Source: a phage
Assembly (NCBI GenBank): GCA_022979955.1
Contig: GCA_022979955.1_3642.1
Length of the DNA stretch: 64,000 nt
Strand: one strand, 5' to 3'
Shown: piece after piece, positions 5,079-58,219 of the stretch
Numbering within the stretch: position 1 is the stretch's first letter
How the letters are laid out: each line of letters opens with the position of its first letter
Translations under genes and position numbers: made by a program
Notes under the pieces: model-generated
The model's input: only the letters and a program-made list of their open reading frames with translations
Told to the model about the DNA's origin: nothing
The model's database searches: none

Positions 5079-5152
5079 TTATTTTTTCGGTGGTCCTGGC
5101 TGCAGGGCCATCTATAAAGATAATTTATTAACACAATGAAAGGAGAAAGTAC

Positions 5153-5506
5153 ATGATCAGCGGGGCAAGTTTTATTATTGGCGCTATTGCTACGGCTTTA
5201 ATTGTAAACAAGATCCAATCTAAAAACGAAAAAGAGAGCAACGCGCTCACAGAATACCCATTTTGGGTATTCAACGACAATGAAGACTACATTATCAAGT
5301 ACAAGAATGAGAAGGGCGACCAGGTAACACCGCGACCGATCCCAGCTTACAAGATGCAAGAAACACTATACCGCCTAAAGGCTGGAGGCGCAAAAATCGT
5401 AGACTTTTGGGGATATGATTGCAAGGATCAGGAGGTTATAAAACGGCGTATCCGGGCGATTCAGGCAAATATTGAAGTTAGCAAGGGGGGAATATATGAA
5501 GATTAA
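5153..5506 (+). CDS. hypothetical protein with N-terminal TM segment
   Basis: ORF track; AAAGGAGAAAG SD; preceded by variant of the palindromic cassette at about 5085..5135. Confidence 0.5.
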   Translation: MISGASFIIGAIATALIVNKIQSKNEKESNALTEYPFWVFNDNEDYIIKYKNEKGDQVTPRPIPAYKMQETLYRLKAGGAKIVDFWGYDCKDQEVIKRRIRAIQANIEVSKGGIYED

Positions 5507-10649: not shown

Positions 10650-10740
10650 TTTAATTTATACCGATACCCGAAAATTAACCAACAAAGCATAAACAGGCGG
10701 TTGCCGCCGCCTTAAACGTAGCAGAAAGAGGATAGATACA

Positions 10741-54473: not shown

Positions 54474-54824
54474 ATGAAAGATGGGGATAAGCTGCTATAT
54501 CTTAAAGTCCCCCTTGAAATACTGTCTATGTCAAAAGTTTTGAATGACACAACTGGGGAGGTTGTTGTTCTTGACTTATATGACAAGATCGTATACTGCT
54601 ACCTGCACAACTGGTATAAGCTTGGAGGAAATTCACGCTTCACACCCAGCACAAGGAAAATTGCAGCAGATGTTGGGATAAAGAAAACAAAAGCAGCAGC
54701 GTGCGTTAAAACTTTAGAATGTGCAGGAGTGGTTGAAATATCCACACAAGGGAGAGGTAAAAGATGTACATTTTCCAAAGTTTTGCCACCAGAAGAGGTT
54801 ATTCGAATGTCAACAACTGGTTAG
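54474..54824 (+). CDS. winged-helix/HTH DNA-binding protein (candidate origin-binding or regulatory protein)
   Basis: TRKIAADVGIKKTKAAACVKTLECAGVV HTH-like segment; GAATCAGGAGA SD; iterons immediately downstream. Confidence 0.45.
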   Translation: MKDGDKLLYLKVPLEILSMSKVLNDTTGEVVVLDLYDKIVYCYLHNWYKLGGNSRFTPSTRKIAADVGIKKTKAAACVKTLECAGVVEISTQGRGKRCTFSKVLPPEEVIRMSTTG

Positions 54825-54895
54825 ACCAGTAAAAACTTAAATATCTGTACTATAAGGATTCGTATGTTTTATGTTCGCTCTGGAACAGAGGTCAG

Positions 54896-54981
54896 TAACT
54901 GTCCGTGATACGGACACTACTGTCCGTCACGCGGACACATCTGCCCGTAATACGGACACTAACTGTCCGTGATACGGACAC
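54896..54981. repeat. four tandem 21-22 bp iterons, each with core GTCCGT-N3/4-ACGGACAC
   Basis: 54896..54917, 54918..54938, 54939..54959, 54960..54981 read directly; copies 1 and 4 identical. Confidence 0.7.
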
Positions 54982-55125
54982 ATAAAGAATATAACTAAAA
55001 TAACTAAATAATAAAAATAAAAGATCTAGTACTTATGGTACTAAGTACATATACTTAACTTATGTAGAATATACTAGATCCTAAGTACCATGTTTTAAAA
55101 TTATTACTTACTATAGGTAGTGTCG
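54982..55125. other. AT-rich tract with short palindromes next to the iterons (candidate DNA-unwinding element)
   Basis: ATAACTAAA x2, AGTAC...GTACT palindromes; no ORF. Confidence 0.45.
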
Positions 55126-55400
55126 GCCCTTCATTGGCACTCGCCTACGAGGGGCGAGATGCCGGGCCTCCTTGGTGCACACAATAACAGAAGTGCATAC
55201 ATGCAGGTCTGTTAACATGTGTGGGAGCGAAGCGATAGCGCAGGCCAAAGGCCGAGCACTGATGTGGACCACCGACGAAAGCTTGCCAGCGCCGTAAGGA
55301 GTCGGTTGAGAGTCTCCCGCGCGAGCTTGGATGAAGTTTATGTGTGGAAACTGACAAGAAGGCCCCTAAATCGCTCCACAGCTATATAAACTATACCAGG
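55126..55400. ncRNA. candidate structured non-coding RNA (GC-rich, nested hairpins)
   Basis: no SD-associated ORF; nested stem GGCCC..GGCA/CTCGCC-TACGAG-GGCGAG/TGCC..GGGCC and further hairpins. Confidence 0.35.
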
Positions 55401-55483
55401 TAATGCAATCGCACCAGTTTGATAGAAAAGCTCGTTACAAAGTGATACAGTGAGTTTTTCTATAACTTGAAGAGGAGGCAGCT

Positions 55484-56062
55484 ATGGGTTCACGCAAAGA
55501 TGACCGTGAAAAGATTGCAAAACGTTATCAGAATGAAGAACAGATGGAGAAAACTTTCAAGTGGAAGCCTGGTTTCCAGCGTAATCATTCTAACGCTCGT
55601 GATCGTAAGCATCCGGATAAGTGGCTAACACCGCCAAATGATGGCATGCAGGTTGGTGATGAGAAGGAGATGTCACCTGGAAAAGATGGCAACTACATTC
55701 GCACTAAGGAAGCTGGTCCAAAGGATGACAGCTATCTTGTAGATAAGGTTCTTAATGGTATTGATGTAGATGTTGACACTGCACGAAACCTTTTTCTTGG
55801 TTGGTATCGTACAGGGTTTTTCGACATCAAGGCTATTCGTCGTGTTTGCGATATTAAAAAGTCTGCCTATGATGATGACTCCCTACATCGCACTCTGAGA
55901 CAATACTCAGAGAGATACGGTCATCCAGTTATCACTCTTGACGATATTAACGAAGTGATGTATCATGCAGAGGTTGTTGCAGGTAGATTCGGTGATGCAT
56001 ATCTAGATATCCTTTCTGCAAAGGATGAGGTAATGTTAAATAAGATTTACTATGAACGCTGA
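55484..56062 (+). CDS. hypothetical protein
   Basis: ORF track; GAGGAGG SD. Confidence 0.5.
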   Translation: MGSRKDDREKIAKRYQNEEQMEKTFKWKPGFQRNHSNARDRKHPDKWLTPPNDGMQVGDEKEMSPGKDGNYIRTKEAGPKDDSYLVDKVLNGIDVDVDTARNLFLGWYRTGFFDIKAIRRVCDIKKSAYDDDSLHRTLRQYSERYGHPVITLDDINEVMYHAEVVAGRFGDAYLDILSAKDEVMLNKIYYER

Positions 56063-56072
56063 GGGGTGCTTA

Positions 56073-56261
56073 ATGAACAATCCGGTAGCAAAGAACTGTA
56101 CTAAGTTTAACAAGTCTGCGATTCACACTGACAGGAAAAAGGGCTGGTCTCCTGACATTGACGAGGAGCTTGAGAGTTACTTTGAAGACCTGGTCACTAA
56201 TGCAGATGAGGTTGCGATTAAAGAATACGCAGACAGGAAGGATAAGGCCGGAATCTGTTGA
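56073..56261 (+). CDS. hypothetical acidic protein
   Basis: ORF 56052..56261 trimmed to ATG with GAGGGG SD. Confidence 0.35.
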   Translation: MNNPVAKNCTKFNKSAIHTDRKKGWSPDIDEELESYFEDLVTNADEVAIKEYADRKDKAGIC

Positions 56262-56337
56262 CAAAAATAGTGTTACCTGATAAGATCTGCAATATGATGT
56301 GATGCAATTTTAACTTACGAGGTCTACAGGTAATGCT

Positions 56338-56580
56338 ATGTTTAAGGTTAAGCTCGTTTTTCGTTCCATGAATGAGGATTATTTAGAAGATGAAGGTGAA
56401 TTTCGTGCACTGGATGATGCAATAGATTTTGCCAACGACTTAGCTTGTATGAATACAGGTTATGGGCTATGTTGTTGGGATGGTGGTGTTCAGATCGGTG
56501 ATAGCAAGATCTTCTACTTCTACCCTGAGCCTGATAACAAACAAATTAAGTATGTTTTATTTATTTGTGCTTTACAATGA
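56338..56580 (+). CDS. hypothetical protein
   Basis: ORF track; promoter-like TTGACA at about 56270. Confidence 0.35.
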   Translation: MFKVKLVFRSMNEDYLEDEGEFRALDDAIDFANDLACMNTGYGLCCWDGGVQIGDSKIFYFYPEPDNKQIKYVLFICALQ

Positions 56581-56589
56581 GGTTGTTTT

Positions 56590-56900
56590 CGTGTATCATG
56601 ATGAATATCCAATTTAAAGATGAATTTGATGGCTTTATCTCCGGATGCTTTGAAACAGGGTTCGGAGAAGACTGAGTTCCCCTCAGAGGGCTTGATAGTG
56701 CACCACACTTAAAATGGTAGGGGCAGCCAGCACATGACGATGTGACCCCAGCCAACCTGTAACAAGGTCGAGCCGAAGCGCGGGTAATAGGCCTCTGGTA
56801 ACCCACTTGTTGGGTCTTGCTGGTCCAGGACGCTGGACAAGTCGCAGGGAATACCACCCTGCGGCGAACTTGACAATCAGTATTTGCTATGATAAAATCC
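56590..56900. ncRNA. candidate structured non-coding region (several GC hairpins)
   Basis: hairpins CACATGACGATGTG, GTCCAGG-ACG-CTGGAC, CGCAGGG-AATACCA-CCCTGCG; ORF 56807 start lacks SD. Confidence 0.3.
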
Positions 56901-56926
56901 ACCTATCACGTGATAATGGAGGAAAC

Positions 56927-57265
56927 ATGGCGGATACAACTAAAAAGCGTCGCCGTAGAGGCAGACCTCTGAAAGAGGAGTCCAACGCCATTCAGCTAGA
57001 GAAGAACATCCTTGATATGAAGGAATCTTTTATAGCGATGGTTCCAGAAGCTCACAAAGTTTTAAGAGAGCTGATGTTGGACCCGAAAACCAAACAAAAC
57101 ATTCGTCAAAGCATTGCAGAGTATGTTCTTGATAAGGCAGACCGAATGCAGGAAGAATATGATGAGATGTTTGGTGAAGAGGAAGAGGTGGTAGTAGAAG
57201 AGGCTGAAAAACCAGCACCTTTTATGCCATTTACTACAGAAATACAGCCTGTTAGCAATAGCTAA
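56927..57265 (+). CDS. hypothetical protein (basic N-terminus, acidic C-terminus)
   Basis: ORF 56807..57265 trimmed to ATG with GGAGGAAAC SD; promoter TTGACA..TAAAAT upstream. Confidence 0.5.
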   Translation: MADTTKKRRRRGRPLKEESNAIQLEKNILDMKESFIAMVPEAHKVLRELMLDPKTKQNIRQSIAEYVLDKADRMQEEYDEMFGEEEEVVVEEAEKPAPFMPFTTEIQPVSNS

Positions 57266-57274
57266 AATATTTTC

Positions 57275-57303
57275 TTGACAAACTTTGCTTAACAGTGTAA
57301 TAT
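57275..57303 (+). promoter_or_regulatory. sigma70-like promoter TTGACA-N17-TAATAT upstream of tRNA cluster
   Basis: hexamers read directly. Confidence 0.45.
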
Positions 57304-57361
57304 TGTAAACATGGTCTCCCACCTTTTCTGGCGGCTAAGGTGTAAAAGAAAGCCACCCAGT

Positions 57362-57436
57362 GCCCTGTTAGCTTAGTGGATAAAGCAGCGGCCTTCTAAG
57401 CCGTTGACACTGGTTCGAGTCCAGTACGGGGTGCCA
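57362..57436 (+). tRNA. tRNA-Arg (anticodon UCU)
   Basis: hand-folded cloverleaf: acceptor GCCCTGT/ACGGGGT, anticodon loop CTTCTAA, T-loop TTCGAGT, 3' CCA encoded. Confidence 0.7.
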
Positions 57437-57440
57437 AATT

Positions 57441-57527
57441 GGGGAGTTATCCCGTAGAGGTAGCGGTGTAGACTGTAAATCTATTGTCATTGCGACTCGG
57501 GTGGTTCGACTCCACCACTCCCCACCA
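57441..57527 (+). tRNA. tRNA-Tyr (anticodon GUA), type II long variable arm
   Basis: acceptor GGGGAGT/ACTCCCC, anticodon loop CTGTAAA, T-arm GGTGG-TTCGACT-CCACC, CCA encoded. Confidence 0.7.
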
Positions 57528-57641
57528 AATTTATATTTTTAGATGCGTAAATAATACAGATAATGGCATTGATATTTATCGTCGTTTATACTAGTCACTA
57601 ACTGCTCGAAAATCAGTGTCATTATCAGTATAATTTATAAA

Positions 57642-57732
57642 GGAGGGTAGGGAGCAATGGTGCTCAAGCGGTCTTGAAAACCGTCCCATTGAGGATGACT
57701 CGATGATGGTTCGATTCCATTACTCTCCGCCA
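57642..57732 (+). tRNA. tRNA-Ser (anticodon UGA), type II
   Basis: acceptor GGAGGGT/ACTCTCC, anticodon loop CTTGAAA, long variable arm, T-loop TTCGATT, CCA encoded. Confidence 0.65.
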
Positions 57733-57830
57733 CATTGTTGACCTTGTAATTAAGCGAAAGCCGGAAGCAGAACCGGATTATCAAATGTTACAGTCGTCAT
57801 CGCCGACTAGCAACATGGTCAACATACTGA

Positions 57831-57927
57831 GCTAGGTAAGCCCTTTGGCAAGGGCGAGGATTTTTAATCCTGAAAATAGACGAGGTAGTCGTTGAATACA
57901 TAGGTGGTTCGATTCCACCGCCTAGCA
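57831..57927 (+). tRNA. atypical tRNA-like gene (anticodon loop TTTTTAA, nominal Lys-UUU) with about 30-nt extra arm
   Basis: acceptor GCTAGGT/GCCTAGC, D-arm GCCC-TTTGGCAA-GGGC, T-arm GGTGG-TTCGATT-CCACC; 4-bp anticodon stem; no encoded CCA. Confidence 0.35.
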
Positions 57928-57933
57928 CCTTTT

Positions 57934-58009
57934 GCTGATGTAGCACAATTGGCAGTGCAATTGATTTGTAATCAATAGGTTGCAGGTTCAAGTCCTGCCA
58001 TCAGCACCA
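57934..58009 (+). tRNA. tRNA-Thr (anticodon UGU)
   Basis: acceptor GCTGATG/CATCAGC, anticodon stem ATTGA/TCAAT with loop TTTGTAA, T-arm GCAGG-TTCAAGT-CCTGC, CCA encoded. Confidence 0.75.
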
Positions 58010-58010
58010 T

Positions 58011-58085
58011 GGCCCTGTAGCTGGAAGGTTCAAGCAAGCGACTCATAATCGCCAGATGGTGGTTCAATTCCACCCAGGGCCACCA
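58011..58085 (+). tRNA. tRNA with CAU anticodon (Met, or Ile if lysidine-modified)
   Basis: acceptor GGCCCTG/CAGGGCC, anticodon loop CTCATAA, T-arm GGTGG-TTCAATT-CCACC, CCA encoded. Confidence 0.65.
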
Positions 58086-58096
58086 AATTATAAATA

Positions 58097-58163
58097 CTCC
58101 GCGTAGCTCAGCTTGGTAGAGCGCCTGATTTGGGATCAGGAGGTCGAGTGTTCGAATCACTCC
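58097..58163 (+). tRNA. tRNA-Pro (anticodon UGG)
   Basis: acceptor CTCCGCG/CGTGGAG, anticodon stem CCTGA/TCAGG with loop TTTGGGA, T-loop TTCGAAT, CCA encoded. Confidence 0.7.
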
Positions 58164-58219
58164 GTGGAGACCACCTTTAGTTATACTTTAAACATATACA
58201 AACGAAAGGAACCTTTAAA

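Follow-up and report, generated by a model that had tools for sequence, protein, structure and literature searches.

The large ROOL and GOLLD RNAs are often found near tRNAs, ribozymes of the HDV-like (hepatitis delta virus-like) family have a 3-bp P3 whose L3 loop pairs, as P1.1, with the nucleotides that follow the 3' strand of P1, and riboswitch aptamers of the THF-I type combine a three-way junction with a long-range pseudoknot in a compact fold with invariant junction nucleotides. The tRNA-associated theta ribozymes of gut phages are HDV-like, a family for which a catalytic cytosine at the first J4/2 position serves as a criterion (PMC10879173), and a catalogue of more than 10,000 structured RNA candidates from phages and metagenomes, all unnamed, has been assembled (PMC10690425). 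Here we describe an element in a 64,000-nt stretch of phage DNA (GenBank assembly GCA_022979955.1, contig GCA_022979955.1_3642.1; this whole stretch is called the window, and positions count from its first letter). We find, by comparison with related and unrelated phages, that positions 56674-56866 of the plus strand, just upstream of a tRNA gene cluster, are non-coding and are a member of a conserved family of structured phage RNAs.

The region around the element (56300-57300) shares at least 95% identity with 119 phage records, every one of them rV5-like (Vequintavirus). A sensitive blastn search with 56600-56900 as the query found that about 460 T4-like phages share ~44 nt (window 56744-56791) at 86-88% identity on the sense strand; in T4 the match is on the transcribed strand, just 3' of the denV stop codon. 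A model of the 40-nt core (window 56751-56790), called R1 and 40 positions long, has a single match in the window, at 56751-56790 (49.3 bits, E = 4e-14), and no second copy was found there. We gathered ~70 distinct copies, whose loci are designated by L numbers, by scanning IMG/VR with patterns, by searching with the protein encoded downstream, and in a single metagenome scan. The carriers are several types of T4-like phage, some of which have the element twice in tandem; relatives of rV5 with ~70% protein identity (L125-L128); ~46-kb phages resembling Klebsiella phage KP591P1; a ~70-kb contig with a tRNA cluster; Kagunavirus (Guernseyvirinae), in which the element lies past the lysin gene, in a gap without annotation; and metagenomic contigs from ocean (TARA), soil and gut. 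The flanks of the core differ in sequence and retain their pairing, as in GGGG..CACAU-GACG-AUGUG..CCCC in the window versus GGGAA..CCUCAU-GAUUAU-AUGAGG..UUCCC in T4. The core is absent from 5,426 E. coli genomes, and a host origin was rejected: the 93 pattern matches in 185,579 bacterial species genomes are all chance matches in GC-rich coding sequence that lack the CCTGT context. As a separate observation, 18 of the 119 rV5-like records (MG0656xx) are named ‘Campylobacter phage’ with C. jejuni as host and are 99% identical here to rV5-like phages of E. coli; these host labels look doubtful.

Alignment of the copies shows that the conserved RNA adopts an H-type pseudoknot, in which helix P1 (56720-56723/56746-56749) is crossed by helix PK1 (56727-56730/56795-56798) and the last loop holds a three-way junction. 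From 5' to 3', the order is the P1 5' strand, an A-rich linker of 3-4 nt, the PK1 5' strand, Pa, the P1 3' strand, the P2 5' strand, Pb, a single C, Pc, GGUAAU, the P2 3' strand, a linker and the PK1 3' strand. The variable Pa occupies one pseudoknot loop and the near-invariant three-way junction (P2, Pb, Pc and the GGUAAU strand) occupies the other. The parts of the RNA are listed here.

56674-56866, plus strand: whole structured RNA (5' module, core and 3' module), approximate extent; a conserved block in alignment A2 with relatives of ~70% identity, bounded by promoters
56679-56709, plus strand: 5' module, with H1 CCCCUCAGAGGG (56679-56690) and H2 AGUG-CACCA-CACU (56697-56709); rV5-like phages only
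56720-56723, plus strand: P1 5' strand GGGG, partner 56746-56749; covariation
56727-56730, plus strand: PK1 5' strand CCAG, partner 56795-56798; covariation
56731-56744, plus strand: Pa, variable hairpin CACAU-GACG-AUGUG; compensated in relatives
56746-56749, plus strand: P1 3' strand CCCC; covariation
56751-56753, plus strand: P2 5' strand GCC, partner 56790-56792, closing the three-way junction; covariation
56755-56768, plus strand: Pb, ACCU-GUAACA-AGGU; stem invariant, loop GURNNA
56770-56781, plus strand: Pc, GAGCCGAAGCGC, short hairpin with pairs G3-C12 and C4-G11; covariation at pair 4-11
56782-56789, plus strand: conserved junction strand GGGUAAUA (GGUAAU in most lineages); conservation
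56790-56792, plus strand: P2 3' strand GGC; covariation
56795-56798, plus strand: PK1 3' strand CUGG; covariation
56802-56863, plus strand: 3' module, with H3 CCCA-CUUGU-UGGG (56802-56814), H4 (56823-56838) and H5 (56843-56863); rV5-like phages only

Substitutions in the helices are generally matched by substitutions in their partners. All five pairs of P1 are compensated across lineages (GGGG/CCCC, GGAAC/GUUCC, GGGAA/UUCCC, AAAGG/CCUUU, GAAUG/CAUUC and others), as are three of the four pairs of P2 (GCC/GGC, ACC/GGU, ACU/AGU, CCC/GGG, CUGG/CCAG, CGC/GCG). Pa is fully compensated in relatives (CUACG-GACG-CGUAG), is CCUCAU/AUGAGG in T4 and long in other T4-like phages, and is missing from the KP591P1-like copies. 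Pair 4-11 of Pc is C-G in most copies, G-C in L124 and L168, U-A in L208, L176, L200 and L170, and A-U in L186. The 5' module is near-invariant in alignment A2, so that no covariation test is possible for it, and is absent from T4-like versions; in the 3' module, H4 is compensated in L124 and L199 (GCUCAG-GACG-CUGAGC) and H5 is absent from L125-L128. Two alternative pairings were rejected. The register that RNAalifold proposed for Pc (G1-C12, G3-U10, C4-G9) does not suit L124, L208, L186, L164 and L170, which fit only G3-C12 with N4-N11, and the alternative found by minimum free energy folding (56684-56689, CAGAGG, with 56792-56797, CCUCUG) is down to 3-4 bp in L123 and L124, while PK1 is kept. 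Where T4-like phages have tandem copies (L016 ~5100-5245, L021 9028-9170, L211 366-517), the second copy has a shortened Pc (AGCCCGCGGC or AGUCCGCGAC), and the Pc stem covaries there too (GCC/GGC versus GUC/GAC).

The fold was tested on three sets of sequences. For 25 distinct sequences in a hand-curated alignment, from which Pa had been removed and in which gaps counted as N, 99.0% of cells were paired, compared to 75.5 ± 1.3% in shuffled alignments (0 of 500 as high) and 21-51% when the helix strands were slid, and 12 of the 18 pairs had changed on both sides. When 12 T4-like copies were aligned with MAFFT and the alignment was left untouched, RNAalifold, although unable to draw pseudoknots, picked the PK1 helix unaided; P1, PK1, Pb and Pc were together 97.6% paired compared to 19-49% when slid, and PK1 was 100% paired, with a middle pair that is CG in 5 copies, AU in 3, UA in 3 and GC in 1. 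In eleven metagenomic lineages that had played no role in deriving the model, 98.9% of cells were paired compared to 34-40% when slid, the covariation score was 0.751 compared to 0.158, and the second Pc pair was CG in 4, UA in 4, AU in 1 and GC in 1. The G-U pairs found in P1, P2 and PK1 are compatible with the plus strand only, which points to an RNA and not to duplex DNA.

A prior reading of the window, made from the sequence alone (the sequence-only reading), had singled out 56590-56900 as a GC-rich, structured, non-coding stretch, possibly a small RNA or a processing or termination element. That the stretch is non-coding, structured and possibly a small RNA is supported, since no frame is kept in relatives, the helices covary and the relatives have a consensus promoter directly upstream. 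The GC-rich character holds for ~56650-56870 (GC 0.53-0.59, flanks ~0.40) and does not extend to 56590-56673, which is outside the conserved RNA; a promoter-like site (56571-56599) ends there, and a conserved block of 21 nt is located there too. The three perfect hairpins it listed are present, at 56731-56744, at 56823-56838 (GUCCAG-GACG-CUGGAC, a split one base away from the GTCCAGG-ACG given) and at 56843-56863 (CGCAGGG-AAUACCA-CCCUGCG); the latter two, H4 and H5, are lineage-specific additions, and the remaining one is Pa of the conserved fold. A role in termination found no support: no terminator-like site was detected in 56200-57400, and no U-tract follows any of the hairpins (H5 runs on into GCGAACUUG). 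A part in processing of the transcript is conceivable. In phage Mangalyan, the annotation is blank from the end of a 25-aa ‘hypothetical protein’ to the 112-aa gene that precedes the tRNA cluster.

We compared the element to described RNAs. With the 4,227 models of Rfam 15, nothing but tRNA was found in 54700-57400 at E ≤ 10, and the whole window yielded only tRNAs; similarly, no model matched the element in the KP591P1-like or rV5-relative loci, or in nine divergent metagenome loci (E ≤ 1). Neither ARAGORN nor the Rfam tRNA model detects a tRNA cloverleaf at 56590-56900. Searches of the literature on denV, vs.8, Vequintavirus and the RNAs of phage tRNA clusters gave no description of the element, of an RNA at its place, or of the core sequence. 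Like the orphan motifs of comparative genomics, the element is defined by covariation, phage-borne and often near tRNA genes, and we file it as a new RNA family within this known kind of orphan phage structured RNA, new with respect to Rfam 15 and the literature searched, the candidates of PMC10690425 having stood outside the comparison. It is much smaller than ROOL or GOLLD. Like the stable RNAs rnaC and rnaD of the T4 tRNA region (species 1 and 2; NC_000866), it is a small non-coding RNA of virulent coliphages with tRNA genes, presumably matured from the same transcripts, but in T4 it lies ~6 kb away from them, between denV and vs.8, and it is common to several phage families. A search of T4 with R1, which represents the 40-nt core only, run with filters off, gave a match only at 64,860-64,899 and none at rnaC/rnaD (70,908-71,171). 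Stable RNAs similar to rnaC and rnaD are reportedly present in the tRNA region of T5. Resemblances of the element to the 530 loop of 16S rRNA (GCGGUAAU), 4.5S RNA, the anticodon loop of tRNA-Tyr (CUGUAAU) and CsrA sites were set aside, as no test supported them.

The only recurrent neighbours of the element are tRNA genes, which lie on the same strand, and at all loci the element is oriented with transcription. The core begins 48 nt after the end of tRNA-Glu in L208 and 56 nt after that of tRNA-Gly in L186, which leaves ~20-25 nt between the tRNA end and P1. The element is inside the tRNA cluster in L171 and 0.2-0.4 kb 5' of the clusters in KP591P1-like phages; in the 70-kb lineage it lies 0.7-1.2 kb downstream. 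In the window it is ~500 nt upstream of the tRNAs with one gene between (ARAGORN finds 7 tRNAs at 57362-58173). There is no nearby tRNA in T4 (~6 kb away), in fEg-Eco19 (none annotated within 1.2 kb) or on several short contigs. Clustering of the open reading frames (ORFs) of the loci found no protein neighbour common to different lineages, and sharing occurs only within lineages; no vs.8 homologue was found in the window, and Pfam searches with the neighbouring proteins were uninformative.

Promoter-like sites adjoin the RNA in several lineages. TTGACA-17-TATACT (11/12 matches; scored in L126) is immediately 5' of the RNA in L125-L128, promoter-like sites are also directly upstream of it in L168 and L216, and in L216 a terminator with a 13-bp stem stands right after the RNA, ~55 nt past the core. 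A promoter scan around the RNA locus found eight promoter-like sites compared to 2.7 expected. The features that flank the RNA in the window are the following.

56571-56599, plus strand: promoter-like site TTTACA-17-TATCAT (10/12 matches), from which the RNA-carrying transcript of the window phage probably starts
56616-56636, plus strand: 21-nt block AAAGATGAATTTGATGGCTTT upstream of the RNA, invariant in alignment A2
56870-56898, plus strand: promoter-like site of the next gene, TTGACA-17-TAAAAT with TG (11/12 matches; kept in relatives), the 3' limit of the RNA unit
56927-57265, plus strand: downstream gene of 112 aa, context only, with its own Shine-Dalgarno sequence (GGAGG, 56918-56922) and promoter-like site

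The last two rows confirm what the sequence-only reading had said of the downstream gene, that it has its own promoter and Shine-Dalgarno sequence. Strong sigma-70-like promoters form a regular series at 56258-56286, 56571-56599, 56870-56898 and 57275-57303, one ahead of every short unit on the way to the tRNA cluster; TTGACA is present in three of them and TTTACA in the fourth, the spacer is always 17 nt, and two have the TG extension. The AAAGATGAATTTGATGGCTTT block is invariant between phages in which the neighbouring proteins are only ~70% identical. In L125-L128 (~1175-1200) it is an 8-codon ORF (MKDEFDGF and a stop) with a strong Shine-Dalgarno sequence, just before the -35 element of the RNA promoter; in the window it is inside a 25-aa ORF, the ATG of which would precede the predicted transcript start.

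Two groups of loci have further features around the RNA. The KP591P1-like copies are enclosed by a long stem (~20 bp) built from repeated sequence, which suggests that in these phages the RNA would be excised by a double-strand-specific RNase. At L007 5233-5438, L009 10524-10734, L018, L023, L131 and L143, which are KP591P1-like and related contigs, AGTGCYMTTWCCGTTGTGRNGA occurs twice per locus, and these repeats, together with GTCACAAC..AGGTAAKAGCAYT, form the long stem enclosing the RNA; in L009, the unit that follows (10660-10715) has a fragment like a tRNA T-arm (GCGGTTCGATTCCGC). These loci may be arrays of excised small RNAs. In T4-like loci (for example L004 and L133), conserved GGA motifs AUACAUGGAUGA and a hairpin GCC-AAGGAAU-GGC are found 20-100 nt past the core; these motifs, in the tail from the pseudoknot to the vs.8 start, resemble CsrA sites, and L133 has ~5-7 GGA. 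GGA is not enriched in the window RNA.

The best overall explanation, to which we assign a probability of roughly 0.5, is that the element is a stand-alone, early structured RNA acting in trans. The host RNA polymerase would transcribe the small RNA early from a sigma-70-type promoter, and the RNA would be released as its own unit or through processing of tRNA-operon transcripts. The P1/PK1 pseudoknot may serve as a clamp that fixes the invariant junction, the surface of which would be the recognised part. In the most speculative step, the RNA would bind a host or phage protein or RNA in trans and not control the adjacent gene; a role as decoy or cofactor in tRNA- or translation-related biology is a guess, with about even odds among the alternatives. 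We favour action in trans over action in cis because each lineage has a different downstream neighbour and the lineages have no protein neighbour in common, and we favour a transcription unit of its own because promoters lie directly upstream of the RNA in L126, L168 and L216 (in L216 together with a terminator) and a promoter is present in the window.

Several observations weigh against this explanation or against the strength of the evidence for it. In T4-like phages, the RNA is always directly before vs.8 or one gene away from it, which also fits a leader acting in cis, and in the window the promoter-like site is ~70 nt 5' of the conserved RNA and no terminator follows the RNA. Single-sequence folding energy does not differ significantly from that of shuffled sequences (z = -1.57 for 56640-56900, plus strand) and is not beyond chance for 56674-56866 either (z = -1.40 on the plus and -0.42 on the minus strand); the case that the RNA is more than chance is made by covariation and conservation across lineages, not by folding energy. 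The hand-curated and the metagenomic alignments, from which the two largest pair counts come, were fitted by eye to the structure, and the P1 5' strands and the PK1 partners outside T4-like phages were picked by complementarity. Shuffling tests of PK1 in individual sequences were mostly non-significant because the helices are short, and PK1 rests instead on aligned covariation. Pb is invariant in all copies, so that covariation neither supports nor refutes it, and part of it was obligatory in the later search patterns; most members were found with patterns in which parts of the core are fixed, and the invariance of the core is thus partly an artefact of the search.

If the element were a riboswitch-like leader or attenuator, its junction would bind a small molecule or a protein and control what follows it (vs.8 in T4-like phages, the 112-aa gene and the tRNAs in the window), which we consider unlikely. 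A core of ~40 nt that hardly varies and that covarying helices and a pseudoknot keep in place has the usual look of an aptamer, and the junction and pseudoknot are like those of THF-I-type aptamers; furthermore, the T4-like core lies 60-100 nt before the vs.8 start with GGA-containing motifs and a hairpin between, and the strong L216 terminator is close behind the core. However, the downstream neighbour varies between lineages, with a constant position (before vs.8) only within the T4-likes, in the window and in L125-L128 a near-consensus promoter intervenes between the RNA and the gene that follows, and in L208 and L186 the RNA follows tRNAs instead of preceding a gene. Unlike THF-I-type aptamers, the element has neither a conserved downstream gene nor an expression platform, and no Rfam riboswitch model matches it. 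We rate lower the idea that it is a self-cleaving or otherwise catalytic RNA, of a new ribozyme class with HDV-like helix order, that processes tRNA-operon transcripts. Like HDV-like and theta ribozymes, which occur in tailed phages and often beside tRNA genes, the element has the nested double-pseudoknot order P1-P2-P3-P1'-P4-P2', with PK1 as P2, Pa as P3 and the P2 domain as P4, although the P3 equivalent is absent from KP591P1-like copies. The tRNA-associated theta ribozymes provide a precedent (PMC10879173), invariance at the level of nucleotides is typical of active sites, and the T4 element begins directly after the denV stop. On the other hand, the linker from the P2 3' strand to the PK1 3' strand, equivalent to J4/2, starts with C in the window, G in T4 and L123, and U in L124, L125 and type B T4-likes, and is absent in L168; Pa is a 5-6 bp stem with a GACG tetraloop, a long hairpin, or absent, so that no L3/P1.1 is possible; and the conserved domain is the equivalent of P4, which is dispensable in HDV-like ribozymes. 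Theta ribozymes cleave within about 5 nt of a tRNA 3' end, whereas the tRNA ends closest to the core are 48 nt (L208) and 56 nt (L186) away from it, and no Rfam ribozyme model matches. Thus, the element is HDV-like in its topology as we model it and is not a member of the HDV-like ribozyme family.

The stretch might be a passive feature, such as terminator or attenuator hairpins, a GC-rich remnant of transfer, or a DNA site for origin, recombination or packaging. Its GC content is unlike that of the rest of the genome, and the presence of the same short sequence in unrelated phages with shared hosts could reflect DNA exchange; but flanking helices that change in sequence yet keep pairing, with G-U pairs that only one strand allows, the constant orientation with transcription, and the lack of a terminator-like site make such a feature very improbable. 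We give next to no weight to the possibility that the region is protein-coding, either as an extension from TTG 56807, as a minus-strand ORF, or as the start of vs.8 in T4. ORFs do exist in the window: the ORF at 56807, which the sequence-only reading named as the only overlapping one, starts at a TTG and extends the gene at ATG 56927 upstream in frame, and a minus-strand ORF of 113 aa (56561-56902) is present as well. Similarly, several GenBank records, some of them rV5-like, annotate a hypothetical protein under the region. However, all six frames across the RNA carry stops in L125-L127, the 113-aa ORF is not kept in these relatives, the putative 56807 extension has a near-consensus promoter within it, and the substitutions in the helices are compensatory. 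In T4 (NC_000866), vs.8 is annotated at 64,253-64,912 (219 aa; locus L220 1754-2413, minus strand) and spans the core at 64,860-64,899. This annotation is probably over-extended, because the in-frame extension is closed by a stop before the core in 18 of 20 T4-like units; the real start would be the ATG of MRTFLTGPYL (~64,792).

Other features of the window lie near the RNA locus. At 54880-54985 there are four inverted-repeat units GTCCGT-N4-ACGGAC, one of them degenerate, ~20 bp apart; they follow the gene of a helix-turn-helix protein (54474-54824; HTH_36 and DUF6945 matches that narrowly miss the curated cut-offs), and ~120 bp at 22-28% GC come after them (54985-55110). Judged by their sequence, the repeats and the AT-rich stretch look like an operator or iteron array beside an unwinding region. 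Another GC-rich gap, 55110-55390 (GC 0.51-0.59), in which only two tiny coding sequences are annotated in Mangalyan, is conserved only in the 119 rV5-like records, has no Rfam match and is unrelated to the RNA. Within the tRNA cluster, ARAGORN reports a 99-nt tRNA of undetermined type with a four-base anticodon (atcc) at 57831-57929; its homologue is annotated as tRNA-Lys in Mangalyan, and the Rfam tRNA model is below threshold there.

The element is apparently unannotated in T4, one of the most closely studied genomes, and the probably over-extended annotation of vs.8 may explain why it escaped notice there. Unrelated virulent phages (Straboviridae, Vequintavirinae, Guernseyvirinae and unclassified ~46-kb phages) and metagenomes have its core with hardly a base changed, and a near-invariant core inside compensated helices indicates that selection acts strongly on a defined three-dimensional surface of the RNA. 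The family may represent a new functional class of RNA, in which the junction would be the active site of a new self-cleaving or processing ribozyme acting on phage tRNA transcripts, a ligand pocket, or a decoy against host defence directed at tRNA or translation, a proposal that we hold only tentatively. The recurrent link to tRNA clusters bears on the use that phages make of the non-tRNA RNAs in these clusters, and since T4 and rV5-like phages are genetically tractable, the function of the RNA is directly testable.

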